NCBI GenBank assembly: GCA_023140385.1
Contig: JAGLLT010000021.1
Span: forward strand, 1,068-65,067
Direction: 5' to 3'
Length of the DNA: 64,000 nucleotides
Origin: Candidatus Omnitrophota bacterium
GTDB taxonomy: Bacteria > Omnitrophota > Gorgyraeia > JAGLLT01
The notes under the pieces were generated by a model. It did no database searches and was not told where the DNA came from. It worked only from the letters and a program-made list of their open reading frames with translations. Position numbers and translations under genes: made by a program. The number at the start of each line of letters is the position of its first letter. Positions within the stretch are counted from its first letter, which is position 1. Below, in pieces: positions 1 through 61,998 of the stretch.

Positions 1-2246
1 GAAACGAACGCTTTGCTATGGACGCGTATAGAAGATTTATCCAGATGTTCGGCGACGTGGTTATGGGCGTTAAGCACGAATTATTTGAAAATCAACTGCA
101 GGTCGTTAAGACTAAGTATGAAATTAAAGAGGATACCGCACTGGATGCCGAAATGCTCAGGGAGGTAGTTGAGCGATATCTGAAAGTATATAAAAAAGAA
201 ACCCGTCAGAATTTTCCAAATGATCCTTATCTACAATTGAAGCATTCTATAAACGCGGTTTTTAATTCATGGAATAACGAGCGGGCCATAAAGTACCGCC
301 GGATTAATGATATTAAGGGCCTCCTGGGAACGGCCGTTAATGTGCAGGCGATGGTTTTTGGCAATATGGGTGAGACGTCGGGTACCGGAGTTGCTTTTAC
401 AAGGGATCCCTCTACCGGAAAGAATGAGTTTTACGGTGAGTATTTGATGAATGCTCAGGGGGAAGACGTGGTGGCCGGCATCAGGACGCCGCGGCATATT
501 GCCAGCCTTAAGAGAGTGAATAAAAAGGTATACATGCAGTTGATGAGTATCAGGAAGAAGCTGGAAGCGCACTATAAAGATATGCAGGATCTTGAGTTCA
601 CAATTCAGGAAGGCAAGCTCTTTATGCTTCAGACCAGAAACGGCAAGCGGACAGCCGCCGCCGCGGTTAAAACAGCCGTTGATATGGTGAAAGAAAAATT
701 GATAAGTGAAAAGACGGCGCTTTGCAGGATAGATCCAATGCAGCTTGATCAGCTGCTTCATCCAACCTTTGACCCGAAGATAGAAAAGAGTCAGAGTATA
801 ATAGCGAAAGGCTTGCCGGCATCTCCGGGCGCGGCCTGCGGCCGTGTAATTTTTAGTTCTGAAAAAGCCGAAGAGTGGGCGGGCCGCAAAGAGGACGTTA
901 TTTTATGCAGGATTGAAACCTCGCCTGAGGATATTGGTGGTATGGATGTGGCTAAGGGCATTCTTACTTCACGCGGCGGAATGACTTCTCACGCGGCGGT
1001 AGTAGCCCGCGGAATGGGTGTCTGCTGTGTAGCCGGCGCCGGTGAAATAGAGATTGATTATAAGGCTAAAAGGTTTAAAGCGGGTTCGGTAACTATCAAA
1101 GAAGGCGATTGGATTTCGCTTAACGGTTCAATGGGGAATGTGTATGAGGGAAAGATACGTACGGTGGAGTCTTCGCTTTCGAGTGACTTTTCAACAATAA
1201 TGAAATGGACTGACAAGTATAGAAAGCTTGGGGTCAGGGCAAACGCTGATACGCCTTTTGACGCGAAGATTGCCGTTAATTTTGGCGCTGAGGGTATCGG
1301 CCTTTGCAGGACAGAACATATGTTCTTTGAGGGCGATCGCATCATTGCCTTTAGGGAGATGATATTGGCCGATGATGAGGCCGGAAGAAAAAAGGCGCTT
1401 AAAAAACTTCTCCCTATACAGAGAAAGGATTTTGTCGGCATCTTTAAGGCTTTAAAAGGCAGGCCTTGCACTATCAGGCTGCTTGATCCTCCGCTTCATG
1501 AATTTTTGCCGCATGATGCCGCCGGACAAAAAGAAATGTCAAAGGTGATGGGCATATCCGTAATGAAAATAAAGCAAAAGATTGAGTCTTTAAAGGAATT
1601 TAATCCTATGCTGGGACATAGAGGCTGCCGACTTGGCCTTATTTACCCTGAGATATCAGAAATGCAGGTAAGGGCAATTATTGAAGCCGCTATAGTTCTT
1701 AAGAAGGCGGGGATGAAGGTACAGCCTGAAATAATGATTCCTCTGGTAGGTCATTATATGGAGCTTAAAATAGCCAGAGAGAGAGCTGAGAAGGTAATTG
1801 ATGAGGTTTTTAAAGAGAAGAAGATCAAGGTTAATTATTTAATTGGTACGATGATAGAGGTTCCCCGGGCCGCGGTTACCGCCGATGAAGTGGCTGAATA
1901 CGCTGACTTCTTTTCCTTTGGAACAAACGATCTCACGCAGATGGGCTGTGGTTTTTCAAGGGATGACGCCGGTAAATTTTTGCCTGATTATGTCTCAATG
2001 GGTATCTACGATTACGATCCCTTTCAGGTGCTTGACGCCGCGGGTGTAGGCAAGCTGATTGAAATTGCCGTCAATTTGGGCAGAAGAACAAACAAAAAAA
2101 TTAAAATCGGTATTTGCGGTGAACATGGGGGAGAGCCCAGGAGCATTGATTTCTGTAATGCCGCGGGATTAAATTACGTGAGTTGTTCTCCTTACAGGGT
2201 ACCTATTGCCAGGCTGGCCGCGGCCCAGGCTTCACTAAAGAGATAG
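1..2246 (+). CDS. ppdK: pyruvate, phosphate dikinase (C-terminal ~740 aa; 5' end lies upstream of window)
   Basis: PEP-utilising enzyme mobile domain and TIM-barrel motifs (GGMTSHAAVVARGMGVCCV, GICGEHGGEP); ORF is open to the window edge. Confidence 0.9.
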   Translation, partial: NERFAMDAYRRFIQMFGDVVMGVKHELFENQLQVVKTKYEIKEDTALDAEMLREVVERYLKVYKKETRQNFPNDPYLQLKHSINAVFNSWNNERAIKYRRINDIKGLLGTAVNVQAMVFGNMGETSGTGVAFTRDPSTGKNEFYGEYLMNAQGEDVVAGIRTPRHIASLKRVNKKVYMQLMSIRKKLEAHYKDMQDLEFTIQEGKLFMLQTRNGKRTAAAAVKTAVDMVKEKLISEKTALCRIDPMQLDQLLHPTFDPKIEKSQSIIAKGLPASPGAACGRVIFSSEKAEEWAGRKEDVILCRIETSPEDIGGMDVAKGILTSRGGMTSHAAVVARGMGVCCVAGAGEIEIDYKAKRFKAGSVTIKEGDWISLNGSMGNVYEGKIRTVESSLSSDFSTIMKWTDKYRKLGVRANADTPFDAKIAVNFGAEGIGLCRTEHMFFEGDRIIAFREMILADDEAGRKKALKKLLPIQRKDFVGIFKALKGRPCTIRLLDPPLHEFLPHDAAGQKEMSKVMGISVMKIKQKIESLKEFNPMLGHRGCRLGLIYPEISEMQVRAIIEAAIVLKKAGMKVQPEIMIPLVGHYMELKIARERAEKVIDEVFKEKKIKVNYLIGTMIEVPRAAVTADEVAEYADFFSFGTNDLTQMGCGFSRDDAGKFLPDYVSMGIYDYDPFQVLDAAGVGKLIEIAVNLGRRTNKKIKIGICGEHGGEPRSIDFCNAAGLNYVSCSPYRVPIARLAAAQASLKR

Positions 2247-2258
2247 CCGGATAAAGTT

Positions 2259-3236
2259 ATGGATATTATTAAACTTTATTTAAAAGACATAAAAGACATT
2301 CCCCTTTTAACACCCGAAAGAGAACAAAAACTTGCCAGGCGTATAAAGAGAGGCAATAGAGAGGCGCGCGCCGAGATGATACGCTCAAACCTTCGCCTGG
2401 TTATCAATATTGCCAAGAGGTACAAATATTTTGGAGTCGGCATCTCTGACCTGATAGAAGAGGGGAATCTTGGGTTGATGAAGGCGGTGCTTAAGTTTGA
2501 ACCGAAGAAGGGGTACAGATTTAGCACTTACGCGTCCTGGTGGATAAAGCAATACATAACCAGGGCCATCGCCAATCAGGGCAAGACAATCAGAATTCCC
2601 GTTTATATGGCCGAGATTATAACCCGCTGGCGAAAAGTTACGGAGCAGTTAGCTCATAAATTAGGCCGGGCTCCCAACCTCAGGGAGGTGACCAAGGTTA
2701 TGAAGATGAGCATGGAGAAGGTTAAGCAGATAAATGAAATCGCGTCTAAGGCCAGTTCTCTGGATGCTCCCATCGGTGAAGATGGTTCCGGACAGTTTAT
2801 GGACTTAATTGAGGATGAAAATATTTTATCTCCTACTGATGAGTTGGCTAAAATATTACAGAAGGAAAGAGTGAGCGCTTTGCTTAATCTTATATCAGAG
2901 AGAGAGAAGGAGATATTAAATCTGCGCTTTGGCCTGAAGGACGGGCAAAGTTACACGCTGGGTGAGACGGCAAAAAGGTTTGGTATTACGAGAGAGAGGG
3001 TAAGGCAGATAGAGGGCGCCGCTATGAAAAAGCTGAAGCTTTATCTGGCCGCTCAGGAGGGAATTGATTTAGATAAACACGAAAAATTACAAAAGAAGAA
3101 AAAAATAAAAGCCAACCTAAAAATGTCCAAAAAAAAACTTAAGGATGCGTTGCAAAAGAAGTCCGCGAAGCAAGTAAGCAAAAAAAGGCGGCCTTCTTTG
3201 ATAAAAAAGATATCAGGCAAAAAAAAGAAGAGTTAG
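2259..3236 (+). CDS. RNA polymerase sigma-70 family factor with ~70-aa Lys-rich C-terminal tail
   Basis: Region 2 (DLIEEGNLGLMKAVLKFEPKKGYRFSTYASWWIKQYITRAIANQGKTIRIP) and region 4 HTH (LGETAKRFGITRERVRQIE); C-terminus is KKKKIKANLKMSKKKLK...GKKKKS. Confidence 0.85.
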   Translation: MDIIKLYLKDIKDIPLLTPEREQKLARRIKRGNREARAEMIRSNLRLVINIAKRYKYFGVGISDLIEEGNLGLMKAVLKFEPKKGYRFSTYASWWIKQYITRAIANQGKTIRIPVYMAEIITRWRKVTEQLAHKLGRAPNLREVTKVMKMSMEKVKQINEIASKASSLDAPIGEDGSGQFMDLIEDENILSPTDELAKILQKERVSALLNLISEREKEILNLRFGLKDGQSYTLGETAKRFGITRERVRQIEGAAMKKLKLYLAAQEGIDLDKHEKLQKKKKIKANLKMSKKKLKDALQKKSAKQVSKKRRPSLIKKISGKKKKS

Positions 3237-3241
3237 AAAGT

Positions 3242-3318
3242 GCCCCAATAGCTCAGATGGATAGAGCACAGGTTTCCTAAACCTGGTGTCGGAGGTTCGA
3301 ATCCCCCTTGGGGCGCCA
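3242..3318 (+). tRNA. tRNA-Arg (anticodon CCU)
   Basis: Cloverleaf: acceptor GCCCCAA/TTGGGGC, anticodon loop TTCCTAA, T-loop TTCGAAT, 3' CCA encoded; one A.C mismatch in T-stem. Confidence 0.8.
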
Positions 3319-3328
3319 ACATTGACCC

Positions 3329-3357
3329 TTGACAAGCAGTAGATTGTATGATATAGT
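3329..3357 (+). promoter_or_regulatory. sigma-70-type promoter, TTGACA-17 nt-TATAGT
   Basis: Near-consensus -35/-10 with 17-nt spacer directly after the tRNA; it would give a ~220-nt leader before the CDS at 3582. Confidence 0.45.
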
Positions 3358-3581
3358 TTAGCCAACGTGCAGGGGGAGCACAAAATCCTGTTGGCTTTAC
3401 CATCATAGGTAGCTTTAATCTTTAGCAAGAAAGGGGGGATAAGGAGAATTAACCAAGCCGCTAGAGGTTACTTAATATATGATGATAAGCATATAAATTA
3501 GTAATTATGTATCTAAGGCTTTTGCCTTAGTCAAAAAATAAATCAAGAACTATAATTAAGACTCTTTAAAGGAGGAAATTA

Positions 3582-5048
3582 ATGAAGAAGTTAACCCTTA
3601 TATGTGCCTTAGTACTGCTGATAGTTTTTAGCGCAGTAGCTAATGCCGAAGTACAGAGAATAAGGGTCAGCGGAGATATTAGCACTTACGGTGTGTGGCA
3701 GCAGTATGATACGTTTTATTATGACGCGACAGGTGTTAACACTTCACCTGATACCACATTCTGGGCGACAACCGTAGGTCTAAATTTTGATGCTGACTTA
3801 ACCGATAACGTCTCCGGACGTTTGAGGCTTGTTAATCAGAGAATCTGGGACTATACTGATGGTGACGCGACAGCGATGGATATTGGTGTAGCTGAAGCAT
3901 ATGTTGTTCTGCAGGAGATGCTTTATGAGCCTTTAACATTGACCATTGGTCGTCAGCCGCTCTACTACGGTAGAGGTTTTGTGCTTGGCTCTAACGTCAT
4001 TGATCCTGAAGGCGACGTCTACAACAATGCTAGCCTTTCTCAGTATGACGCTTTTGATGCCATTAAGGCGGTATTGGATTATGAGAGCTTTAAGGTTGAT
4101 TTAGTTTACTCTAAAATCGACGAAGGTACAGACAACAACGTCCGCAATATGATTTCATCAAGAGACGACTTTGATCTATGGTTAGTCAATGTCGGCATAC
4201 CTTTTGATGACTATGAAGCGGAAGCAGAGCTTTATTATCTTGGTATCAATAACCAGGATACAGGCAACGTGACTACTTATTGGACAGGTCCTCGCGGGCG
4301 TGCCCTGGACGGAAACGTTGTAGTAAGAGTACCCCATCAGGAAGTTCATACAATTGGCGCGAGAGGAAGTATGGTGCCGGTTGAGAATTTAAGTATCTTT
4401 GGTGAGTTAGCCTATCAGTTTGGTGATTGGGGCACGACTGACTACAATGCGGTTCACAACGTAATCGGTTCCAAAACACTTGACATCAGCGCTTTGGGCG
4501 GTGAAGTCGGCGGCGATTATCTATTTGCTGACGTAACCGGTACTCCGAAGCTCGGTTTGTGCTATAGCTTTAGAGAAGGTGAAGATTATAACAGCTATCC
4601 TCATGAAGAAGGTGATTATGATAACTTTTATACACCGTTTATGAAGAAGTCCGACACAGTTATTTATGGCTGGAACGGACGTTACTTTGGTAACTTTGCA
4701 AACAGTGTAGATGCTAATGACACTTCATGGGATCAGAATATGCACCAGATATTGGTTTCAGGTAATATTGATCCTTTAGCTTACTGGGACATTGATGACG
4801 TTCATATGGGACTAAGATATGCCTGGTTCCACTTTGAAAATCCGCCGGTTAGCGGACGTGATAAGCATGCCGGTGACGAACTGGATGTAACCTTAACTTA
4901 TGATTACACCGAAGACGTTCAGTTTGGCCTGGTAGCCGCTTGGTTCTGGCCGGGTGATTACTACAAAGATGATAATCCTAACAACGCAGCCGGTTCTGAT
5001 GGTGACATCGTGACCAGCGTATGCGGTTCTTGTAAACTTACTTTCTAA
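3582..5048 (+). CDS. secreted beta-barrel outer-membrane-type protein, function unknown
   Basis: Signal peptide MKKLTLICALVLLIVFSAVANA; alternating-polarity strands rich in Y/G/D; C-terminal ...KLTF ending in Phe (OMP signature); strong RBS AAGGAGG. Confidence 0.5.
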   Translation: MKKLTLICALVLLIVFSAVANAEVQRIRVSGDISTYGVWQQYDTFYYDATGVNTSPDTTFWATTVGLNFDADLTDNVSGRLRLVNQRIWDYTDGDATAMDIGVAEAYVVLQEMLYEPLTLTIGRQPLYYGRGFVLGSNVIDPEGDVYNNASLSQYDAFDAIKAVLDYESFKVDLVYSKIDEGTDNNVRNMISSRDDFDLWLVNVGIPFDDYEAEAELYYLGINNQDTGNVTTYWTGPRGRALDGNVVVRVPHQEVHTIGARGSMVPVENLSIFGELAYQFGDWGTTDYNAVHNVIGSKTLDISALGGEVGGDYLFADVTGTPKLGLCYSFREGEDYNSYPHEEGDYDNFYTPFMKKSDTVIYGWNGRYFGNFANSVDANDTSWDQNMHQILVSGNIDPLAYWDIDDVHMGLRYAWFHFENPPVSGRDKHAGDELDVTLTYDYTEDVQFGLVAAWFWPGDYYKDDNPNNAAGSDGDIVTSVCGSCKLTF

Positions 5049-5080
5049 TTTTAAGAAATGTAAGTTAGTTAAAGCAGAAA

Positions 5081-5115
5081 AGCCCCGCGAGAGTTACTCT
5101 CGCGGGGCTTTTTGT
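5081..5115 (+). terminator. rho-independent terminator
   Basis: AGCCCCGCGAGAG-TTAC-TCTCGCGGGGCT stem-loop followed by TTTTT. Confidence 0.8.
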
Positions 5116-5144
5116 TTGACAAAAGAAAATAATTATGCTATAGT
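5116..5144 (+). promoter_or_regulatory. sigma-70-type promoter, TTGACA-17 nt-TATAGT
   Basis: Second copy of the same consensus architecture, 85 nt upstream of the CDS at 5228. Confidence 0.45.
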
Positions 5145-5162
5145 TTAAGCGGAATTAATTCC

Positions 5163-5210
5163 TGCCTACGCTGAAGCTACGGCAGGCAGGCGTCCCGAAA
5201 CTTCGGGACT
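5163..5210 (+). promoter_or_regulatory. two tandem hairpins in the 5' leader (CCTGCC..GGCAGG; GTCCCGAA-AC-TTCGGGAC)
   Basis: Perfect 8-bp stem GTCCCGAA/TTCGGGAC and a 6-bp CCTGCC/GGCAGG stem lie between the promoter and the RBS AAGGAGG. Confidence 0.3.
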
Positions 5211-5227
5211 CATTAAGGAGGTAAGAA

Positions 5228-5596
5228 ATGGCTGATGAAGTAAGGAAAGAAGATGTAGTGAAGAAAGAAGATGTAGGCCTCAAAGAAGATAAGGAGACGC
5301 AAGAGGGTAAGGTCTGGGCGATTTTAGCTTATCTTGGAATATTGTGCCTTCTACCTTTATTACTTAAGAAAGAAAACAAGTTTGCTCTTCATCACGGCAA
5401 GCAAGGCTTGATACTTTTTATTGCTGAAATGACAGCCTTATTTGTTAATATAATTCCTGTGATTGGCCAGATAGTCTTTGGAGTTGTTTATTTGGCAGCC
5501 GGTATTTTTTCAATTGTAGGAATAGTTAAAGTTCTGATGGGTGAGTACTGGAAGGCCCCTTTAATATCTGATATAGCCGATAAGATTAAAATCTAA
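5228..5596 (+). CDS. small membrane protein (DUF4870-like, 2 TM)
   Basis: WAILAYLGILCLLPLLLKKENKFALHHGKQGLILFI plus a second TM; Glu/Lys-rich N-terminus. Confidence 0.45.
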   Translation: MADEVRKEDVVKKEDVGLKEDKETQEGKVWAILAYLGILCLLPLLLKKENKFALHHGKQGLILFIAEMTALFVNIIPVIGQIVFGVVYLAAGIFSIVGIVKVLMGEYWKAPLISDIADKIKI

Positions 5597-5630
5597 AAAT
5601 GAAATTGGCAGCACATTCGAAGATAGTTAA

Positions 5631-5667
5631 AAAAACCGCTAAGTATTGCTCTTAGCGGTTTTTTTAT
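5631..5667 (+). terminator. rho-independent terminator
   Basis: AAAAAACCGCTAAG-TATTGCT-CTTAGCGGTTTTTTT. Confidence 0.75.
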
Positions 5668-5692
5668 AAAGTTAAAGGGGAGGGGGAGGCAG

Positions 5693-6064
5693 ATGCTATT
5701 TGGTCTTTTAGGAAAAAAGAAAAAAAATGATCGGGGAAGCGTAAAGAAAGCAGTTAAGCCTAAAGCAAAAACCCGACCCGTTAGTAAGATTAAAAAGCAG
5801 ATTGTGGGTGAGGTTACGCATTATTTTTCTAAGGTTAAGGCGGCGGTTATAAAGATTAAAAAAGGCCCCGTTAACGCGGGCGATATTATATATATAAAAG
5901 GCCATACTACCGACTTTAAGCAGAAAATTTCATCAATGCAAATAGACCGCAAGCTGGTTGATAAAGCGGCGAAAGGCAAGGAAGTTGGCGTACGGGTAAA
6001 GAGAAGAGTCAGGGTAGGCGATGTTGTATATAAAAACATAACGGGAAAGGCAGTAAAAAGATGA
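5693..6064 (+). CDS. small basic protein with Lys-rich N-terminus and beta-barrel (EF-Tu domain-2-like) C-terminal part
   Basis: KKKKNDRGSVKKAVKPKAKTRP then VGEVTHYFSKVKAAVIKIKKGPVNAGDIIYIKG...VRVGDVVYK; RBS GGGAGGGGGAGG. Confidence 0.45.
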   Translation: MLFGLLGKKKKNDRGSVKKAVKPKAKTRPVSKIKKQIVGEVTHYFSKVKAAVIKIKKGPVNAGDIIYIKGHTTDFKQKISSMQIDRKLVDKAAKGKEVGVRVKRRVRVGDVVYKNITGKAVKR

Positions 6065-6717
6065 AGAAAGCAAAAGATAGTCATAAATATACCTTTGAGG
6101 CAGATGACCCATGGAGAGTTTTTCGTATTATGTCCGAGTTTGTTGACGGCTTTGATGACTTATCGAAGATAGGTAAAGCCGTAACATTTTTTGGGGGAAC
6201 CAAAATAAAAAAGGATAGTAAGTACTATAAACTTGCCCAAAAGGCGGCCCATAAGCTGTCTAAATGCGGCTATGCTATTGTAACCGGCGCCGGCCCGGGA
6301 ATTATGGAGGCGGCCAATCGCGGGGCAAGAGAGGCGGGAGGCATTTCAGTGGGCCTAAATATTGAAATTCCGCTTCAGCAAAAGCCTAATCCCTATATCA
6401 CTAAATCGCTATATTTTAGGTACTTTTTTGTGAGAAAGGTTATGTTTGCTAAGTATTCAAAAGCCGTTATTGTTTTTCCGGGCGGCTACGGCACTCTGGA
6501 TGAGTTTGCTGAGTTTATAACTCTACTTCAAACGGAAAAAATTGAACCATTTCCGGTAATTGTTTTTGGCAAGAAGTACTGGTCAGGCCTTTTAGAATGG
6601 CTTAAAGGCCCAATGCTAAAACACGGTTTAATAAGCAAGGAAAACCTCAATGTTTTCAAAGTAACGGATAGTGTTAATGAGGTAGCAAGTATTATTAACG
6701 GTTTTTACAATAAGTAA
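6061..6717 (+). CDS. LOG family protein (cytokinin riboside 5'-monophosphate phosphoribohydrolase / TIGR00730)
   Basis: GAGPGIMEAANRGA and PGGYGTLDEF motifs; ATGA overlap with the upstream gene. Confidence 0.85.
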   Translation: MKKAKDSHKYTFEADDPWRVFRIMSEFVDGFDDLSKIGKAVTFFGGTKIKKDSKYYKLAQKAAHKLSKCGYAIVTGAGPGIMEAANRGAREAGGISVGLNIEIPLQQKPNPYITKSLYFRYFFVRKVMFAKYSKAVIVFPGGYGTLDEFAEFITLLQTEKIEPFPVIVFGKKYWSGLLEWLKGPMLKHGLISKENLNVFKVTDSVNEVASIINGFYNK

Positions 6718-13712: not shown

Positions 13713-13991
13713 TTGTCAAAACTAGTTACTCTTTATACGTTTAAAAAACTCTAAACCCTAAACTCTAATATCTAAATCCTAAATAATTTCAAAATTCTAA
13801 TGCTCAAATGTTATAAACCTTAAGTGTCTTTGTTTTGGTCATTTGCCTGCCTGTCGGTAGGCAGGTATTTTGGACATTTGGATTTGTTTAGTATTTAGTG
13901 CTTAGTATTTAGGATTTTTACAATAAATATAACTCTTTTAAATCACGTGGTTCTTTTGCAATTTTTTAAACAACTTTGACAGTATGCAACC
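13713..13991 (+). repeat. intergenic repeat family 1, copy A (with 20-bp CCTGCC..GGCAGG hairpin insert at 13846-13865)
   Basis: ~85-95% identical to the copies at 25930, 45121, 46151 and 56911; internal inverted repeats AAATCCTAAATA/TATTTAGGATTT and CAAATGT/ACATTTG. Confidence 0.85.
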
Positions 13992-25929: not shown

Positions 25930-26197
25930 TGTCAAAATTATTTACCCTTTATACGTTTAAAAAACTCTAAACAAACTCTAAATCCTAATATCTAAATCCT
26001 AAATAATCTCAAAATTCTAATGCTCAAATGTTATAAACCTTAAGTGTTTTTGTTTTGGTCATTTGTATTTTGGACATTTGGATTTGTTTAGTGTTTCGGA
26101 TTTAGTATTTAGGATTTTCCTCTCCCTCCATGATAAAAATATTCCTTTTAAATCACTTAGTTTCCTTATAATTTATCATACAACTTGTGATATTACC
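25930..26197 (+). repeat. intergenic repeat family 1, copy B (no central insert; divergent 3' third)
   Basis: Shares the CTGTCAAAA..TTTATACGTTTAAAAAACTCTAAAC..TTTTGGTCATTTG..GGACATTTGGATTTG blocks and the 3' CATACAACTTGTGATATTACC block. Confidence 0.85.
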
Positions 26198-38460: not shown

Positions 38461-38700
38461 AATAACCAAGTTATACCCTAATCCTATGCTTCGCTTCTTA
38501 TATCAAGACGTTCGCATTCGCTCACTCTAAGGATTAAGACGCTCACTTTGTTCGCTCTAAGGATTAAGTTTTTTTCACTTAATCCCCGCTCTTACTCAAT
38601 CCTATTTTTTAATCCTTTAACTTAATCCTTAGAGCTCACCAACAATTTGTCGATGGTGAGCGTCTTAATCCTTAATCCTGTTTTTTGCGTCTTGGTTATT
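38461..38700 (+). repeat. intergenic repeat family 2, copy 1 (bounded by 10-bp inverted repeat AATAACCAAG / CTTGGTTATT)
   Basis: ~100-bp core CAAGACGTTCGCATTCGCTCACTCTAAGGATTAAGACGCTCACTTTGTTC..CACTTAATCCCCGC shared with 61897-61998; multiple GGATTAAG/CTTAATCC units. Confidence 0.8.
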
Positions 38701-38860: not shown

Positions 38861-39836
38861 AACTTATTTCCTTTTCGATTTCTGAAATTGTTAATTTATG
38901 ATAACCGCTTAACAAATAAACTACTCCTCCTATAAGGCTGAGGCATAGGAGATAAAACAGCCACATAAGGGCCAGAGCTGCGGCTTCCGCCCTATCAACC
39001 AGAGAGCCGAAGAGTAGTACAAAGGCGAATTCGCGGGGGCCGGTGCCCCCTAAAGATGGAATCATGCTGGCGGCGCTGATAATGGGTATAAAAAGAAAGA
39101 AAATCGAGTAGTTCACTTGAAGGTGAAGGCTTTTGGATATAATAAAACAAACTGTAATAATCAGCACCTGTCCTCCAAAGGCTATTAGAAAGGCAAACAG
39201 GCTCGCGCGCTTATGCCGGCCGAAGTCGTTTAAGACCCCGTATATTTTTTGCGCCGGCTCTTCTATTTTTCGAAGTCCGCACAGTGATATTAAGAACTTA
39301 AACTTTTGGGCCAGCCGGTGATTAAGGGAAAAGACGACGAAGAAAACAGCCAGTCCGAAAACGGCAAAGATGAAAAACCTCATTTTAAATGGTATTATAT
39401 CGGCGCCCGCGATAAATAAGGCCGCGATTGCTATAGAGACAATAGACATAAGGCCGATTGTTCTGTCGGCAAAAACAGCTGTATAGCACTCTACTTTTTT
39501 CTTTTTAAATTTCTCTGAGGCATAGTATGCTTTAGCTATGTCTCCGCCTACCGCTGTTGGCAGGAAGCTGTTAAAAAAGAAGGCTATAAAGTTTAACCGA
39601 AGAGATTCCGTAAAGTTCAATTTTAACTTTTGTGTTGATAAAACGACCTTCAGCCTTAATGACAGCAGTAAAACATTGACAATAAATAAAAAAAACCCCG
39701 CAAAAAGGTAATATTTGTTTGCCGAGCTCAAAATCTCTCCCAGCTCACCGGCATTCTCTTTCAAAAAGTACCAGAGAATTAATATAATTATCAGGGTAAC
39801 GGCAACTCTGGAAATTAAAAAAATATGTTTTTTCAC
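38838..39836 (-). CDS. UPF0104 / flippase-like (MprF-type TM domain) membrane protein
   Basis: 8 predicted TM helices; PTAVGGDIAKAYY motif. Confidence 0.55.
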   Translation of the reverse strand: MKKHIFLISRVAVTLIIILILWYFLKENAGELGEILSSANKYYLFAGFFLFIVNVLLLSLRLKVVLSTQKLKLNFTESLRLNFIAFFFNSFLPTAVGGDIAKAYYASEKFKKKKVECYTAVFADRTIGLMSIVSIAIAALFIAGADIIPFKMRFFIFAVFGLAVFFVVFSLNHRLAQKFKFLISLCGLRKIEEPAQKIYGVLNDFGRHKRASLFAFLIAFGGQVLIITVCFIISKSLHLQVNYSIFFLFIPIISAASMIPSLGGTGPREFAFVLLFGSLVDRAEAAALALMWLFYLLCLSLIGGVVYLLSGYHKLTISEIEKEISYDKQRVA

Positions 39837-40027
39837 AACCGCAACTATATCACATATAAGGGGATAAGTAAAGTTAAAATTAGAATTGCATCAAGCCTTT
39901 ATCGTCTTATACCTTCTTACTTTTCATAATTATGACACAAGTGTATCATAAAAGAAACAGACGTTAAGTCCCACCGCATTAAATAACCCCCAACTCCTTT
40001 AATTCCCAAATCATGAGATATACCCAT

Positions 40028-40630
40028 TTAATTGTTTTGTCCAGATAACCTTTGCCCTTTTGATTCCATTTTTATCAAGAAATTAGTATTGTGTCCCCCG
40101 ATTAGCATTGGCTTGTTATCTTTTTTTATTTCGTCTTGCCATTTATTTACATTTGAAATCAATCCATCAACTAAATCACATAATTCTTTTAGATATTTCT
40201 CATTAAGTGGGTACAGTGTTTCTTTTGAAATGGTACTTATGCCATGGATTTTGTTTGTTTCGGTGTTCACCTGATAAGCCAATTCATTTTGTTCTTGAAA
40301 TGCATGCGCATAAATTTTAGTTGCTTGATTTATAATGTATTCATGCAATTTTACGTATTTTTTGGGAATATGTTTTTTGTTTAATCCTGCGTTGCGAGTT
40401 GTAGAGTTGAAACATCTTCTATATTTAATAAAAATCGCTGTATATAGCGCATCAATAACCACAACCTTTGTTAAATTTTTGGGGAAAATTTCATCCTTAA
40501 TTTTTTTTAATAGAATTTGGCAAATTTTTTTTATTCTTTCAAGATCTCTATTTTGTATAGATGTCAAACCAGATAATCTTAATAATTTCTTGTTGGTGGT
40601 TTTTATTTTATTTAACTTAAAATTTGCCAT
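40028..40630 (-). CDS. hypothetical protein in low-GC island
   Basis: 200 aa with no recognisable motif; AT-rich codon usage unlike the flanking genes. Confidence 0.4.
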   Translation of the reverse strand: MANFKLNKIKTTNKKLLRLSGLTSIQNRDLERIKKICQILLKKIKDEIFPKNLTKVVVIDALYTAIFIKYRRCFNSTTRNAGLNKKHIPKKYVKLHEYIINQATKIYAHAFQEQNELAYQVNTETNKIHGISTISKETLYPLNEKYLKELCDLVDGLISNVNKWQDEIKKDNKPMLIGGHNTNFLIKMESKGQRLSGQNN

Positions 40631-40790
40631 AGTTTAAATTAATTATTTAAAGATAACGTTTGAACTCACTGGTTTTTACGGAGCACAGCGGAGTAAAAAT
40701 CCAGTGCAGGGTCAAAGCAGTGCCTGACCCCGTTGTTTAATAACACGCGCAGCGAAAAAAGTCAGGTTGAGCAAATTGTTATGTGTTCTT

Positions 40791-41165
40791 TTATTTCTTT
40801 TTCAATTTGTGTGAAAACAATGTGCTTGATAGGTGATGTATTTTCTTCCTTTTTTGCCCTATGTCAGATCTTTTTATTTTTTTATAATAGTCGTAATTAC
40901 ATTTGTTGCCATAAATACGAAACTTTGTAACCAAAAATCCACCTATAATCAAAACAATTCCGATTTTCCAGTTTATGAAAAGATAAATAACTCCTCCAAT
41001 CATTAGATATCCAGTTATTACACTTAAAAGAGGATTTGGTCCCATAGGAATTACATGAACTATTGAAGCAATAAGAAATAATGCTATTGCTAATTTCCAG
41101 TTGAAAAAAATAAAAATTATAGTAAGTACAAAGAGCAACGATTTAATTATATTAAGAATTTTCAT
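40791..41165 (-). CDS. small 4-TM membrane protein with basic C-terminal tail (island gene)
   Basis: Four hydrophobic helices followed by KKIKRSDIGQKRKK...KLKKK. Confidence 0.45.
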   Translation of the reverse strand: MKILNIIKSLLFVLTIIFIFFNWKLAIALFLIASIVHVIPMGPNPLLSVITGYLMIGGVIYLFINWKIGIVLIIGGFLVTKFRIYGNKCNYDYYKKIKRSDIGQKRKKIHHLSSTLFSHKLKKK

Positions 41166-41255
41166 AGATTTATATTATATCTCAGATAACATTTGAGCTT
41201 ACCTACTGGGTTGAGCTCCTTTTGTGCGCTCCCTCCAGATAGATGAAGCGATTTG

Positions 41256-41597
41256 TTATGATATTTTGTCCTTATATTTCTCATAATCTGAGAGATATGC
41301 TCTCTCAGATTCATCTATAAACTCTTGTTTTCTGTCTCTGAGATCTCGAAGTTTTCCATGTATGCTCTTGTAGACAATCTGATGAGCTTGGTTTTTAATT
41401 TTCTCTTCAACATATTCATCAAAATCTACCTCTTTGCTAAGTATCGAATTTACAAGATTTAATAAATCCTCTTTAGTGATCCTGTCAATTGGTTGAAATT
41501 CACCATCCTTATCAAGAAAATGACCAAGATCATTATCGATCTTCAATAGCTTCATATGCTTGCCTCCTGCTTTCATAGGCTTCCAATCCCGCCTCAA
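41256..41597 (-). CDS. hypothetical small acidic/helical protein overlapping the 3' end of the PHP-ATPase gene
   Basis: Likely start is an internal Met (MKLLKIDND..., ~41555); charged and helical with no motif. Confidence 0.4.
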   Translation of the reverse strand: MRRDWKPMKAGGKHMKLLKIDNDLGHFLDKDGEFQPIDRITKEDLLNLVNSILSKEVDFDEYVEEKIKNQAHQIVYKSIHGKLRDLRDRKQEFIDESERAYLSDYEKYKDKIS

Positions 41598-43560
41598 GTG
41601 AATTCAACATAATTTTATGATTTTTGATAGATCTCCCGTCGATGGATTTGAGTATCTTATCGGTTGGATGTCCAGAGTAAATCCTATAAATTGTCTTCCC
41701 ACTCTCTACTTCCTTGTTGGCATACAGCAGGTAATCTGCACTAACAGAGGCCCCCACCGTGCTATTGTGTGTAACCACAACCACAGGCATTGATTCTGAT
41801 ATTTCCCTTAGAATTTGATTCACATCACTTTTTAGAAACATATTGTCGAATGAGGATTCTGGCTCATCAATGAGTAAAATATCAAAGTTTTGGGCATCTT
41901 TGATTTCCTGTAGCAATCGAAATTCGGACCGTTCTCCTCCTGAAACGTCAACGCCATCAGAATTTAGAATTTTGTATTCAATTTTTGTAAACAGTCTGTA
42001 TAGTTCTGATCGTACTAAGTGGTTATCAGCCATTAGAGCTTGTAGGTACCGGTATGGGGCTCCGTATTCTTTCAGAGCTTCCTTAAATGATGTGTTTACT
42101 CCACTTGCAGATTTAATCTCTCCAGCCTTAGTGAATGCACCTTTGCTAGCAACAACAGAAAATCCTTGAACATTCTCCTCAAATATTATAGACTCTTTCC
42201 GCAAGCTGTTCACAATATCTTCGAATCGTTTCACCTTTCTGTCTTCCATGCACACTCGATACAAATCAACATCATTAACCTGAATGGCAGATGTGCGCGT
42301 TTTTAGACTATCTTTTGTATCTTTGATAATCCCATTGAGAAACCGCCTTTTTTTATTTTCCAGCGCCTTACTCCAGAGCAATTCAATTAATTCACACGCA
42401 AGTTTTTTCAAAGACTTTATATCAACATGTTTCTCGATAATATTCCTGTATTCGATGTTCTCAATAACTTGACGAACTGATGAAATGAGTTCTTTTAGAA
42501 CTATGTCATCCCTTACAGGAAATGCTGTCTCATCAAAGAGGGCAACTTTTGAATATGCATCACGCCTATATGCTTCTTCTGCTGACTTAAGGAGGGAAGA
42601 AATATAATTCTCAACATCCCGCTTGTTACGTTCTAAGTCAACATTCATCACATCATCTAAGACTGACTTGAATGCAGATAGGTAACGATCAAGAAAAGTA
42701 CTACGTTTTTTTTGAACTTCGTTTTTAAACTCACGATCATACGCTGCCTCGTCTCGTTGAACCAATGAAAACTGTCTGATATATTTTACCCCTTCATATA
42801 CATCATTTATCTTATTCAAAGTATATGTTTTACCAGTTGATCTATCACCAAGGAGGACATTCAATCCTGTGGACATCTTTTGTCCGTCATCAAAAATCTG
42901 AAATAAGGAATTACCGTCATCCTCTGACAAAAAAACTTTACCCTTGTCTCTAAGGCAGGCCCTAATGGCACTAAAGCTCAACTCGCCGCAATCCAGAAAA
43001 GTCTGTCTTGTAGGCAAACTACATAGGCTATCACTTGCCCTAACATCACTAAATAGAACAGGGGTCAGTTTTGTTTTATCTTTTATGACACGGATAAATT
43101 TCTTTGCGCTATCGACCTCACCTGCTGTGATATAGGAAGAGAGTTCCTCTAGTGTTTTACCCCGAATGGAGGGCTTTTTGTCATGATGGGGGATAATTAA
43201 ATAACTGTTTAGGTTTCCGTAAATATTTTTCAGATTATCTACTGTAATGCTATCATCAACATGAGATATTCTTTTTAAGACCTCATCAGACCTAGATTCA
43301 AAGTCTTCAATGTCTGATCCGTCGCTCAAAAGTAATATATGGCAATTATCCAGGTTTATCTCAATTCCTGGGAATACTGTAATGGGTAGTGATTCATTTA
43401 TAGCCCTGAATTGTTCCGCGTTAAATTTATTATGATTAGTTATCGCAATAGCATCCAGATTAGCTTCTGTTACGTATCTTTTTAGACTATCCATGCAGAA
43501 AGTAAAGTCGCTATCACTGATGGTTTTAATGGTGTGAATGTGTAGATCTATTTTTTTCAT
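41533..43560 (-). CDS. PHP-domain phosphoesterase fused to SMC/Rad50-like ABC ATPase (Ppl/OLD-class defence-like)
   Basis: N-terminal IDLHIHT, ITNHN, IIPHHD (PHP); then Walker A LLGDRSTGKTYTL, a helical insert, signature VSGGERSEF, Walker B ILLIDEPESSFD and H-loop VVVTHN. Confidence 0.7.
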   Translation of the reverse strand: MKKIDLHIHTIKTISDSDFTFCMDSLKRYVTEANLDAIAITNHNKFNAEQFRAINESLPITVFPGIEINLDNCHILLLSDGSDIEDFESRSDEVLKRISHVDDSITVDNLKNIYGNLNSYLIIPHHDKKPSIRGKTLEELSSYITAGEVDSAKKFIRVIKDKTKLTPVLFSDVRASDSLCSLPTRQTFLDCGELSFSAIRACLRDKGKVFLSEDDGNSLFQIFDDGQKMSTGLNVLLGDRSTGKTYTLNKINDVYEGVKYIRQFSLVQRDEAAYDREFKNEVQKKRSTFLDRYLSAFKSVLDDVMNVDLERNKRDVENYISSLLKSAEEAYRRDAYSKVALFDETAFPVRDDIVLKELISSVRQVIENIEYRNIIEKHVDIKSLKKLACELIELLWSKALENKKRRFLNGIIKDTKDSLKTRTSAIQVNDVDLYRVCMEDRKVKRFEDIVNSLRKESIIFEENVQGFSVVASKGAFTKAGEIKSASGVNTSFKEALKEYGAPYRYLQALMADNHLVRSELYRLFTKIEYKILNSDGVDVSGGERSEFRLLQEIKDAQNFDILLIDEPESSFDNMFLKSDVNQILREISESMPVVVVTHNSTVGASVSADYLLYANKEVESGKTIYRIYSGHPTDKILKSIDGRSIKNHKIMLNSLEAGLEAYESRRQAYEAIEDR

Positions 43561-43892
43561 TGTACACCCCGATCAATACTGGCATTATTTACATCATAAC
43601 AATTAATAGAAGTAATACATAAATTTATGGTTTTTTCATGAAAATCTCTTTTTATTGATATTTATTATATATCTAGGCTATTTGTGCGTCAAGGTGAAAA
43701 ATTATGGGTAGTTACGACAAAAGATAAATTGATAATATTTTGTAATTGCTCTATGATATTAGAAAATATGTATTGCGTATAATATGGAGTTTTTGCGGAA
43801 AAGGAATATATCTATGCGGCAAAGTTAAGAAGGCTTCAAAAATGAAATAATCACTTTTAATTAATTCTATGAAGGGCGGCTAAGGGCGGTTT

Positions 43893-45092
43893 CTAATCAT
43901 TATCCGCGGGGAGTTCTTCGGGTGGGATGGGTTCTTCTTCTTTTGGCGGGAGGGGGAGGTTGCGGGCGGTTCTTAGGAGGTCGATTTTATTTAGCGGTTT
44001 TTCAAGTTGTCTTTTTCTGGTGGTGATCAGACTTTCATACTCTTTTTGGGCGGCTCCAATTCGTTCACCTACCCTTTTTAACTTTTCCACAAAGGAGCCC
44101 CACTCTTTCTTGAATCTGCCTAAGAGTGACAATATCTCATTGGATGTTTTTTCTAAAGTGAAGTTGTCGACCGCCTGGCGGATGACTGCCAAAATGGCAA
44201 AAAGTGTGATGGGTGAGCAGATAATCACCTTCTCCTTAATAGCATTGTCAAATATGGCGCTGTCCTGTTCATGAATAAAGGCGTATATTTGTTCATTGGG
44301 GATAAAAAGAAGGACATAATCAACGGTATTTTGTTCAGGGTTAATGTATTCACGGGTAGTTATTTCTTTAATTCTTAATTTGACATCAGCCATAAATTTA
44401 TCGCGAAAACTTTTCTTTTCCACTTTAGAATCGCATTCAACATACCTGGCATAGTTATCCAGCGGAAACTTTACATCCATATTCAGCTTTAACTCTCGGG
44501 GCAGTAAAAAGGTAAAGTCAGGGCGCGAGCCGGCTTCTTCGATTGTTTTTTGTTTTAAGTAGTTTACGTTTTCGATTAAACCCGTCAGCCGCAGGACGTC
44601 TTCAGCCATTCGTTCTCCCCACTGCCCTCTTGATTTGGTGCTGGCCAGGGCTTCACGCAGGCTGTTTGTTGTCTGGGCAAGAATTTGGTTTTGCTCATTA
44701 ACCGTTTTAAGCTGATTGGAAAGCTCGCCGAATTTCTGAGTTCTGTCTTTTTCCAAATCCTTCATCAAGACAGAAACGCTTTCGAGTTCGCCGGACATAC
44801 GGTTCAACTGCTGGTCTATGAGCTCTTTCTTTGAGATTAACTCTCTGGCGGTTAGCTCTCTTTCGGATTCAAGCTTAGACTTGGCTAATTTAAAAAACTC
44901 ATCAGTTGTTCGTGAAAGTGCGTCTGACGACAAGTCGCTAAAAGTGTTTTTTAACTTTTCAATAAGCAGGTCGGTTTCCTGTTTATGCTGCGCCTGACTT
45001 TTTTTGTAAAGGTGGCGCGTTATGACAGCGGTTAAAGCAGCCCCCAGAAAAAATCCTGTTAGCGTAGAGATTAAAATAACGGTTATATCCAC
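43893..45092 (-). CDS. rmuC: DNA recombination protein RmuC
   Basis: N-terminal TM, long coiled coil and conserved RmuC C-terminal domain; GTG start. Confidence 0.8.
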   Translation of the reverse strand: MDITVILISTLTGFFLGAALTAVITRHLYKKSQAQHKQETDLLIEKLKNTFSDLSSDALSRTTDEFFKLAKSKLESERELTARELISKKELIDQQLNRMSGELESVSVLMKDLEKDRTQKFGELSNQLKTVNEQNQILAQTTNSLREALASTKSRGQWGERMAEDVLRLTGLIENVNYLKQKTIEEAGSRPDFTFLLPRELKLNMDVKFPLDNYARYVECDSKVEKKSFRDKFMADVKLRIKEITTREYINPEQNTVDYVLLFIPNEQIYAFIHEQDSAIFDNAIKEKVIICSPITLFAILAVIRQAVDNFTLEKTSNEILSLLGRFKKEWGSFVEKLKRVGERIGAAQKEYESLITTRKRQLEKPLNKIDLLRTARNLPLPPKEEEPIPPEELPADND

Positions 45093-45120: not shown

Positions 45121-45315
45121 TGTCAAAACTATTTACTCTCTCTAAACCCTAATATCTAAATCCTAAATAATTTCAAAATTCTAATGTTCAAATGTTATAA
45201 ACCTTAAGTGCCTTTGTTTTGGTCATTTGCATTTTGGACATTTGGATTTGTTTAGTATTTAGTGCTTAGTATTTATGATTTCCCGTCCTTCATACAACTT
45301 TTAACATTACCAAAT
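45121..45315 (+). repeat. intergenic repeat family 1, copy C (5' block shortened)
   Basis: TGTCAAAACTATTTACTC...CTAAACCCTAATATCTAAATCCTAAATAATTTC...GGTCATTTGCATTTTGGACATTTGGATTTG...CATACAACTTTTAACATTACCAAAT. Confidence 0.85.
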
Positions 45316-46150: not shown

Positions 46151-46390
46151 ATTGTTAAAATTATTTATCCTTTTATACGTTTAAAAAGCTCTAAACAAAC
46201 TCTAAACCCTAATATCTAAATCCTAAATAATTTCAAAATTCTAATGTTCAAATGTTATAAATCTTAAGTGTTTTTGTTTTGGTCATTTGTATTTTGCGTG
46301 CCCCGTAGTTAAATGCGAAGCATTTGTACTACTGGGGGACATTTGGATTTGTTTAGTATTTGGTGCTTAGTATTTAGGGTTTTTACAATG
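46151..46390 (+). repeat. intergenic repeat family 1, copy D (41-bp nested-hairpin insert at 46297-46337)
   Basis: Family blocks present; extra CGTGCCCCGTAGTT-AAATGC-GAA-GCATTT-GTACTACTGGGG at the same central position as the copy A insert. Confidence 0.85.
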
Positions 46391-56910: not shown

Positions 56911-57170
56911 TAAAACTACTTACTCTTTATACGTTTAAAAAACTCTAAACAAACTCTAAATCCTAATATCTAAATCCTAAATAATCTCAAAATTCTAATG
57001 CTCAAATGTTATAAACCTTAAGTGTCTTTGTTTTGGTCATTTGTGTTTTGGACATTTGGATTTGTTTAGTATTTAGTGCTTAGTATTTAGGATTTTTACA
57101 ATGAATATAACTCCTTTAAAACCATTCTGTTCCCTCACGATTTTTCATACAACTTTTGACATTATCCAAA
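56911..57170 (+). repeat. intergenic repeat family 1, copy E (canonical, no insert)
   Basis: Full set of family blocks, including the 3' CATACAACTTTTGACATTATCCAAA that abuts the downstream gene stop. Confidence 0.85.
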
Positions 57171-61896: not shown

Positions 61897-61998
61897 CAAG
61901 ACGTTCGCATTCGCTCACTCTAAGGATTAAGACGCTCACTTTGTTCACTCTAAGAATTAAGTTTTTTTCACTTAATCCCCGCTTTTACTTAATCCTTA
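61897..61998 (+). repeat. intergenic repeat family 2, copy 2 (between trpB and trpA)
   Basis: ~95% identical to 38505-38606. Confidence 0.8.

Follow-up and report, generated by a model that had tools for sequence, protein, structure and literature searches.

The closest characterised relative of the locus described here is Ppl, reportedly presented by Gao et al. in 2020 as a single-gene defence system. According to the review PMC12904381 and to the work of Xu et al. (Mol Cell 2026) cited in PMC13434339, Ppl is a 3'-5' exonuclease of single-stranded DNA that is held inactive by NTPs and switched on by DNA 3'-OH ends together with NTP depletion; these properties are reported for the E. coli protein. 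A second point of reference is PDC-M49, a PADLOC phage-defence candidate predicted by 'guilt by embedding', an approach in which such candidates are defined by their embedding in BREX, DISARM and type I RM loci (Payne et al. 2024, bioRxiv 10.1101/2024.01.29.577857). A full-text literature search by the name PDC-M49 gave no paper and no experiments on it were found; for 'TrlF', the NCBIfam name connected with Ppl-type proteins, the papers retrieved used these letters in other senses only.

The window, by which we mean the whole analysed stretch of 64,000 nucleotides from Candidatus Omnitrophota bacterium (contig JAGLLT010000021.1), carries a two-gene locus that we compare with these systems. 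Gene A occupies exactly the ATG-to-stop span that the initial annotation had given it, and is a real ORF encoding 675 aa; its location on the minus strand is a detail missing from that annotation. The features of the locus are as follows.

43664-43692, minus strand: promoter-like TTGACG-17-TATAAT, 11 of 12 consensus positions, from a consensus scan (pattern match only)
41533-43560, minus strand: gene A, 675 aa, ATG-to-stop ORF, matching PADLOC PDC-M49A
42946-43560, minus strand: PHP (beta/alpha) barrel of A, residues ~1-205, with conserved putative metal ligands H7, H9, H43, E67, H74, H125 and D172
42766-42906, minus strand: ATPase N-lobe of A, residues ~219-265, with Walker A G238-T245 (K244) and Q-loop Q263, from a profile match and invariant residues
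41986-42750, minus strand: helical arm between the ATPase lobes, residues 271-525, from model secondary structure and Foldseek
41671-41985, minus strand: ATPase C-lobe of A, residues 526-630, with signature S540-G-G542, Walker B D565-E566, D-loop S570-D572 and H-loop H598
41536-41622, minus strand: C-terminal helical tail of A, residues 647-675, with the motif LEAG..AY..R...Y (E656, Y662, R665, Y669)
41563-41568, minus strand: Shine-Dalgarno AGGAGG for gene B, within the last codons of A, read from the sequence
41256-41555, minus strand: gene B, 99 aa, acidic (pI 5.2), ATG at 41555, matching PADLOC PDC-M49B

Profile searches place the pair firmly. Protein A matched the PDC-M49A HMM (PDLC04680) with an E-value of 7.7e-297, aligning residues 1-673 with positions 1-673 of the 674 in the profile, and B matched the PDC-M49B HMM (PDLC04682) at 8.8e-36 from the ATG at 41555 onwards. 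The two genes are adjacent and on the same strand, as in PDC-M49, and no difference from that candidate is apparent at the sequence level; by these matches, the A-B locus is a member of PDC-M49. The pair is thus already catalogued, and the suggestion that the system might be a new variant falls away.

The relation to Ppl is more distant. The PADLOC Ppl HMM (PDLC02208) did not match A, as a whole protein or as either half, even at E<=10; a TrlF-family control protein gave 4.5e-30 with the same HMM and 2.7e-13 with the PDC-M49A HMM. Against the NCBIfam TrlF profile (NF045780), A scored 74.8 bits (E 6.3e-21; residues 3-451 versus profile positions 7-543 of 944), below the curated cut-off of 350, a score that indicates homology and not membership. 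BLASTP and hhalign alignments of A with a TrlF/Ppl-type protein are collinear in both halves, with the C-lobe matching the C-terminus of the latter at an hhalign probability of 97% and the tail motif aligning with LEGGRQAFEAREQKY in the TrlF protein. Both families share the order PHP domain, Walker A lobe, helical insertion, signature/Walker B/H-loop and tail, including the tail motif LE.G..A(F/Y)..R...Y. They differ in that A, at 675 aa, is some 220 residues shorter than the 893-944 aa of Ppl/TrlF, and in that Ppl is encoded by a single gene whereas A is always accompanied by B. Judged from these alignments, A is related to the TrlF/Ppl PHP-ATPase family as a distant, collinear homologue and is not one of its members, so that the initial idea of a short, divergent Ppl relative was right in spirit, although the silence of the Ppl HMM and the constant presence of B speak against counting A as a Ppl. 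Since that HMM misses A, any transfer of the Ppl mechanism to the present locus is a long extrapolation.

Domain organisation of protein A

An AlphaFold model of A built from 106 diverse representatives reached a mean pLDDT of 94.3 and a pTM of 0.80, and replaced an earlier, poor model (pLDDT 64.6, pTM 0.39) built from 63 close homologues of 64-85% identity; searches by sequence turned up no solved structure closely related to A, to B or to a TrlF/Ppl-type protein. In the model, A is a PHP metal-dependent phosphoesterase barrel fused to an ABC ATPase head of the SMC/RecN/Rad50 class with an arm of ~260 residues. The proposal of a PHP-type domain and an SMC/Rad50-like ATPase in one polypeptide is thereby borne out by the model, by Foldseek and by the profile match of the Rad50 N-lobe. 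All the motifs quoted for A were located in the translation, namely DLHIHT (5-10), TNHN (41-44), PGIEIN (64-69) and IPHHD (123-127) in the PHP part, and Walker A GDRSTGKT (238-245), signature VSGGERSEF (539-547), Walker B ILLIDEPE (561-568) and VVVTHN (594-599) in the ATPase part. They are not chance matches, because key residues stay invariant when 106 representatives of the family, with identities as low as 26%, are aligned: H7, H9, N42, H43, E67 and D172 in the PHP domain, and G238, R240, G243, K244, Q263, S540, G542, D565, E566 and H598 in the ATPase.

The (beta/alpha) barrel fold of PHP proteins is present in A. Its Pfam PHP score, 20.3 bits, falls short of the gathering score of 26.4. 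Its metal motif (H7, H9, H43, E67, H125, D172) is invariant or nearly so and closes with D172-x-R174. The canonical last PHP motif is D-x-H, and the metal site of A may therefore differ from the usual one. The stand-alone PHP proteins EndoQ, RNase AM/YciV and TM0559 have no fused ATPase, whereas the A family carries one and ends its metal motif in D-x-R.

Within the ATPase, the A family profile matched the Rad50 N-lobe (3qku) at E 3.6e-6, and the C-lobe matched profiles of ABC nucleotide-binding domains, AriA and SMC. The intervening segment, described initially as an alpha-helical insertion of ~300 aa, is indeed mostly helical but smaller, at ~260 aa, and includes one beta-hairpin (457-474); the model resolves it into long helices at 271-328 and 381-453 with an apical helical cluster at ~340-378. 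In the C-terminal tail, E656 and Y669 are invariant and Y662 and R665 nearly so, and the DNA encoding it also carries the start codon and ribosome-binding site of gene B. Foldseek returned RecN (4ad8, E 5.9e-7) as the best match of the ATPase part of the model, followed by JetC, MukB, an SMC head and the retron I-A ATPase (E 5e-6 to 3e-4), with Rad50 heads also retrieved; the RecN, SMC, MukB and JetC targets are heads with coiled-coil stubs.

Public annotations point elsewhere, naming close homologues 'histidinol-phosphatase', 'phosphotransferase', 'ABC-type dipeptide/oligopeptide/nickel transport ATPase' or 'SufC', and transporter ATPases such as PstB and HisP do match the C-lobe (E 1e-10 to 1e-3). 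That A is an ordinary metabolic or transport protein is nevertheless extremely improbable. The transporter matches cover only the segment with the signature, Walker B and H-loop (~510-630), while the Walker A lobe lies ~270 residues upstream across the helical arm; no NCBIfam score comes anywhere near its cut-off; and no histidine-biosynthesis genes lie nearby. A neighbouring permease had been named beforehand as the sign of a transport-type ATPase, and across 79 loci no permease or substrate-binding gene was adjacent here or recurrent elsewhere, the flanking genes varying from locus to locus.

The structural matches also bear on the initial description of A as an SbcCD/Mre11-Rad50 analogue. 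A shares with those complexes the pairing of a nuclease and an ABC ATPase, and an antiparallel helical arm that separates the two ATPase lobes; unlike theirs, its nuclease is a PHP barrel and is fused, not a separate calcineurin-like subunit. No Metallophos-type (Mre11/SbcD) match was found in A, B or the neighbouring genes, and A has no conserved CxxC and no cysteine in any invariant or nearly invariant column that could form a zinc hook. Its arm measures ~60-70 residues per side, against strands of hundreds of residues in Rad50. What stands of the description is the head with its arm; the SbcD-type nuclease, the zinc hook and the long coiled coil do not, and for A the comparison with SbcCD is an analogy only. 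A housekeeping role would nonetheless accord with the ranking of RecN, then Rad50 and SMC heads, among the Foldseek matches, and with the proofreading or processing of DNA by PHP domains in PolX, Pol III alpha and EndoQ: A-B would then be a compact SbcCD, Mre11-Rad50 or RecN analogue that processes the cell's own DNA ends, a reading on which the genomic context bears below.

The SMC-like defence ATPases Wadjet JetC, Lamassu LmuB and that of retron I-A, together with RecN, resemble A in the ATPase part, and small accessory subunits occur with them as B does with A; in the defence ATPases of this type, however, the effector nuclease is separate and a kleisin or KITE subunit is present, whereas A has its nuclease fused and the 99-aa B as its sole partner. 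OLD/Gabija GajA, PARIS AriA and Septu PtuA resemble A in coupling an ABC ATPase to a nuclease, and weak HMM matches of A to AriA and HEC-01A/02A were obtained, all marginal (E 1e-5 to 1e-3). Those proteins combine TOPRIM or HNH nucleases with AAA_15/AAA_21 ATPases, while A has neither nuclease: no TOPRIM match was found in A, which ends in a helical tail ~45 residues past the ATPase C-lobe.

Gene B and its association with A

The reading of A as a single-chain, single-gene system does not survive inspection of its 3' end. Gene B starts inside the last codons of A, with an overlap of 23 nt in the window, and B lies directly 3' of A and overlaps it by 20, 23 or 26 nt in 79/79 informative loci (78 of 80 genomes and one metagenome contig, in which the sequence runs past A), which makes it the partner of A. 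The B start codon is ATG in 78 of these 79 loci. In the window, a Shine-Dalgarno for B inside A implies, as far as the sequence can tell, translational coupling, and a purine-rich motif of the GGAG(G) type was found <=16 nt 5' of the B start in all 12 homologous loci listed. The median pI of B across loci is 4.9, and 683 homologues of B were found. The identities of A and of B to the window copies are correlated (r = 0.87), and the two genes co-occur and co-diverge everywhere examined; one natural in-frame A-B fusion was recovered (P0082). No recurrent third gene emerged among 377 flanking ORFs. Neither inside a TrlF protein (by hhalign) nor beside its gene was a counterpart of B found. Weak matches of B to GajB (E 1e-3) and Tad5 (E 0.03) were treated as noise.

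These properties raise the prospect of a toxin-antitoxin or plasmid-addiction module, in which the small acidic B would restrain a toxic nuclease A until plasmid loss or host shut-off of expression freed A and killed the cell; this reading overlaps with abortive-infection defence. The overlap of the genes with its apparent translational coupling, the size and acidity of B and the co-divergence of A and B would all suit it. Classical type II toxins, however, are unlike a protein of 675 aa, and the putative toxin here would carry a full regulatory ATPase, its toxicity being putative. For B itself, sequence searches of Pfam, NCBIfam, PADLOC and PDB recognised nothing that would mark an antitoxin or a DNA-binding fold. 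On balance we regard addiction as a minority reading, improbable though with some weight, to which the plasmid-borne copies described below also belong.

The promoter-like site lies ~100 nt 5' of the A start codon. No intrinsic-terminator-like site was seen within 39800-44000, and Rfam identified two tRNAs in the window and nothing else. A 13-nt motif, TCAAAYGTTATCT, present in two copies 3' of B and of the next ORF, was set aside, being matched by 3 of 100 shuffles.

Distribution and genomic context

The gene A family comprises 1875 clusters at 90% identity (E<=1e-3), or 226 at 50% identity (E<1e-30), and its members are nearly uniform in length at ~660-700 aa. Neither a tblastn search of phage records with A nor a search of PHROGs with A or B gave a match. 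A search of 185,579 species genomes recovered the A-B module in 330 (~0.2%), which are scattered over many phyla; the module also occurs in at least one archaeal MAG. Most copies are chromosomal, which counts against the addiction reading. Its presence on plasmids (53 records, with many conjugative or mobilizable plasmids among them) counts in favour of that reading, as does a copy on a pAD1-named E. faecalis plasmid, where A-B sits between recombinase and transposase genes.

In other genomes, PglZ-BrxL can directly precede A-B, and the genes nearby also comprise integrases, a type I restriction enzyme and a type III methyltransferase as well as DRT reverse transcriptases, Shedu, SoFic and nSTAND3. 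We count these surroundings, like the plasmid copies and the scattered distribution, in favour of a defence role; the neighbour counts per family do not name the matched protein, and the enrichment in defence genes is illustrative and not a statistic. The window itself tells against a defence role, in that A-B is flanked there by the housekeeping genes for RmuC, Memo and a flippase-like membrane protein, with no recognised defence gene adjoining it.

The same flanks bear on the repair reading. The position of rmuC upstream of A in the window, together with DUF2130 or RmuC proteins encoded directly beside A-B in 6 of 138 cases from other genomes, would fit a machine for the cell's own DNA ends. 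Yet the genes flanking A-B differ in every locus, and neither A nor B occurs at any of the 80 rmuC loci retrieved from related metagenomes, so the adjacency in the window is incidental. A distribution over only ~0.2% of species genomes that cuts across phyla, and the occurrence on plasmids and beside BREX, RM and DRT genes, further argue against housekeeping, and we judge a repair or recombination role unlikely, more so than addiction. The same 80 rmuC loci (<=70% identical) were tried as anchors for the borders of an island; none included the downstream genes, and the borders are not definable in this way. The module is, overall, rare, phylogenetically patchy and horizontally mobile.

Proposed function and significance

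The reading that we favour, and hold to be somewhat better than even, is that A-B is a mobile two-gene module encoding a nucleotide-gated nuclease complex directed against invading DNA, with B as its regulatory component. We infer this function from sequence, model and context. A and B would form one complex, in which nucleotide binding would drive head-to-head dimerisation of A through the Walker A, signature and D-loop motifs; by analogy with the distantly homologous Ppl, this dimerisation may gate the PHP nuclease, whose target would be invading phage or plasmid DNA. As the putative regulatory subunit, B might inhibit A, serve as a sensor or clamp A at its arm or tail, and may contribute a function that is either built into the longer, single-chain Ppl or dispensable there. 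PHP enzymes span phosphatases, RNases (RNase AM) and lesion-specific endonucleases (EndoQ), a breadth that we counted against this explanation.

A more specific form of this proposal, which we advance tentatively and with odds against it, is that PDC-M49 is an anti-phage or anti-plasmid, minimal two-subunit nuclease machine of the SMC type in which B, and not NTP levels alone, gates or targets the PHP nuclease joined directly to the ATPase head. If that were so, its mechanism would be distinct from that of single-chain Ppl, and it would be the smallest known machine combining an SMC-like head with a nuclease.

Discovery in the strict sense is limited, as the family is already in PADLOC and Ppl has a published mechanism. 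Confirmed as defence, PDC-M49 would nonetheless represent a second, compact branch of PHP-ATPase (Ppl-like) nucleases, one that reaches across many bacterial phyla, at least one archaeal MAG and the pAD1-named Enterococcus faecalis plasmid. The obligate 99-aa B offers a handle on how an SMC/Rad50-type head controls an attached nuclease, and at ~775 aa in total, A and B are small enough for structural and biochemical work. The comparison also corrects public names, 'histidinol-phosphatase', 'phosphotransferase' and 'ABC-type dipeptide transport ATPase' being misleading for the A family.

Catalytic centers and domain architecture of gene A

Gene A, the PHP–ATPase gene, is an ATG-to-stop ORF whose boundaries coincide exactly with those of the initial annotation, which had omitted the strand. 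All the motifs quoted there recur in the product at the residues listed here, alongside the overlapping gene B.

41533..43560, minus strand: gene A, 675 codons
41256..41555, minus strand: gene B, 99-codon ORF; ATG at 41555, AGGAGG ahead of the ATG
Gene A residues 5-10: DLHIHT
Gene A residues 41-44: TNHN
Gene A residues 64-69: PGIEIN
Gene A residues 123-127: IPHHD
Gene A residues 238-245: GDRSTGKT (Walker A)
Gene A residues 539-547: VSGGERSEF (signature)
Gene A residues 561-568: ILLIDEPE (Walker B)
Gene A residues 594-599: VVVTHN (H-loop)

We detected 1875 relatives of gene A (90%-identity clusters); at E<1e-30, they form 226 clusters at 50% identity, almost all with a length of 660-700 aa. An alignment of 106 representatives, with identities down to 26%, revealed invariant residues in the N-terminal part (H7, H9, N42, H43, E67, and D172) and in the ATPase (G238, R240, G243, K244, Q263, S540, G542, D565, E566, and H598), with E568, N573, E656, and Y669 as further invariant positions. 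The many relatives and these invariant columns show that the motifs are not chance matches. Both catalytic centers are strictly conserved, and the domain architecture is established.

An AlphaFold model built on a diverse alignment (mean pLDDT 94.3, pTM 0.80), which replaced a poor model from close homologs only (pLDDT 64.6), predicts that the part beyond the PHP domain is an ABC-type ATPase. Its N-lobe carries Walker A and Q263, and its C-lobe the signature, Walker B, D-loop, and H598; the two are parted by residues 271-525, modeled as two long helical segments (271-328 and 381-453) along with a beta-hairpin and a small cluster of helices at the apex. The modeled helical arm is short, and no zinc hook is present, the conserved cysteine pair being absent from the 106-representative alignment. 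The domain reading of the initial annotation was largely right. The transporter and histidinol-phosphatase annotations were rejected.

Gene B is the obligate partner of gene A

The ATG of gene B precedes the A stop codon by 23 bases. Across 80 loci, each from a different species' genome, a B homolog lies directly downstream of A in 78, and the other two contigs end within A. When one metagenome locus is added to these 78 genomes (79 loci), the overlap is 20, 23, or 26 nt in every case, the B start codon is ATG in 78, and B is 96-117 aa long in 77, the remaining two being cut short at 69 aa; the median pI of these homologs is 4.9. PADLOC profiles PDC-M49A and PDC-M49B match gene A end to end (E 7.7e-297) and gene B from its first residue (E 8.8e-36), respectively, and the identities of A and B homologs to the window copies are correlated (r = 0.87). 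One ENA metagenome contig encodes a 771-aa in-frame A–B fusion, with its junction in the overlap region and the first B residues replaced; it could be real or an assembly indel, and, if real, would provide a Rosetta-stone hint of A–B interaction. No third gene recurs among 377 flanking ORFs. Collectively, the adjacency, overlap, PDC-M49B match, co-divergence, fusion, and lack of another recurring gene show that the unit comprises two genes, with B as an obligate, translationally coupled partner, rather than the single-chain, single-gene system initially proposed. Gene B has 683 homologs; searches of Pfam, NCBIfam, PHROGs, PDB sequences, and the TrlF protein discussed below gave nothing informative.

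Relationship to known systems, distribution, and proposed function

The locus is an instance of PDC-M49, an already catalogued two-gene candidate, rather than a new single-chain system. PDC-M49 is among the 145 'phage defence candidates' of Payne et al. (bioRxiv 10.1101/2024.01.29.577857), derived from genes that lie within BREX, DISARM, and type I RM loci and placed in PADLOC as predictions; a literature search for PDC-M49 by name found no paper.

The suggested kinship with Ppl holds only as distant homology. The NCBIfam TrlF model aligns with A over residues 3-451 (E 6e-21), scoring 75 bits where the cut-off is 350. An 893-aa TrlF protein encoded on an IncI plasmid of E. coli, which matches the PADLOC Ppl model at E 4.5e-30 and PDC-M49A at E 2.7e-13, is collinear with A in the PHP-to-Walker A and signature-to-C-terminus parts by BLASTP and hhalign, sharing the terminal motif LE(A/G)G..A(Y/F)..R...Y. 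However, the PADLOC Ppl HMM does not match A even at E<=10. Since A is about 220 aa shorter and depends on B, whereas no B-like gene adjoins the plasmid TrlF gene, sequence comparison places A as a distant homolog outside the Ppl/TrlF family. On that plasmid (NZ_AP028312.1, locus positions 1498-6396), a type I CBASS pair (cyclase and S-4TM effector) directly precedes the TrlF/Ppl-type gene. Comparisons with SbcCD/Mre11-Rad50 and OLD are best regarded as analogies only, because A lacks the calcineurin-like nuclease and zinc hook of the former and the TOPRIM nuclease of the latter, and its nuclease is fused to the ATPase.

The A–B module was recovered in 330 of 185,579 species genomes scattered across Pseudomonadota, Planctomycetota, Bacteroidota, Bacillota, Spirochaetota, Chloroflexota, Omnitrophota, and one archaeal MAG, and on 53 plasmid records; none was found in phage genomes. 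A pAD1-named E. faecalis plasmid carries it between recombinase and Mu-like transposase genes, and in Rugamonas fusca PglZ-BrxL lies immediately upstream. Other neighbors include a type I restriction subunit, a type III methyltransferase, DRT reverse transcriptases, nSTAND3, Shedu, SoFic, AriA-like ATPases, and four integrases. This context, with counts that are illustrative and carry no formal enrichment test, fits a mobile defense gene; it speaks against a housekeeping repair function, as do the module's rarity and patchy distribution, and we disfavor that reading.

For a defense role, we propose that A and B would form one complex in which the heads engage in a nucleotide-dependent manner via the conserved Walker A, signature, and D-loop motifs and thereby control the PHP nuclease, with invading nucleic acid as the putative substrate. 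B may act as an inhibitor of A, a trigger sensor, or a clamp on its arm or tail. E. coli Ppl, the closest characterized relative, is reported (PMC12904381; Xu et al., Mol Cell 2026, as cited in PMC13434339) to be a 3'-5' ssDNA exonuclease that is off when NTPs occupy both domains and on after NTP depletion with 3'-OH ends. A toxin–antitoxin or addiction module is an alternative reading of the pair, and one compatible with abortive defense. The locus merits experimental testing, although it is only moderately surprising.

Surroundings of the locus and dispersed repeats

A–B sits among housekeeping genes: rmuC is upstream, and on the downstream side a flippase-like gene comes after two orphan ORFs.

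43893..45092: rmuC, upstream gene of A
40791..41165, minus strand: hydrophobic orphan ORF, 124 aa, within the low-GC stretch
40028..40630, minus strand: orphan ORF, 200 aa, matching phage family phrog_8440 (function unannotated; E 4.9e-8)

The rmuC adjacency is incidental, as 80 rmuC loci in related metagenomes all lack A–B. Elsewhere, of 138 flanking positions, five hold a DUF2130 protein immediately next to A–B and one more holds RmuC; this may be coincidental or stem from a common integration preference. About 100 nt ahead of A is a promoter-like TTGACG-17-TATAAT. Directly downstream of B, GC content drops to about 30% (39750-41250), against about 40% in the flanks. Both orphan ORFs may be part of one inserted island together with A–B; comparison of flanking ORFs did not find them accompanying A–B in other genomes.

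A protein identical to the A product is filed under a Candidatus Omnitrophica bacterium MAG, and one NCBI record 100% identical to the B product is titled Candidatus Heimdallarchaeota archaeon. Given these conflicting titles and the bacterial-looking TonB, EF-P, and LepA genes of the window, one of the two MAG bins is probably contaminated.

The window also holds two intergenic repeats.

45140-45281, 46200-46382, 56954-57095, 25976-26120, 13758-13917: copies of a repeat of about 145 nt
38504-38603 and 61897-61996: second repeat, 100 nt, 96% identity between two distant copies

The first, dispersed in at least five same-orientation copies (85-95% identity), looks MITE-like, with terminal inverted repeats AAATCCTAAATACTAA... 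and ...TTAGGATTTAGATATTAGGATTT and small nested insertions in two copies; it matches no Rfam family, and covariation gives no support for an RNA structure. Inside the second-repeat copy near 38.5 kb (38517-38674) lie several inverted repeats whose 19-nt arms are perfect.
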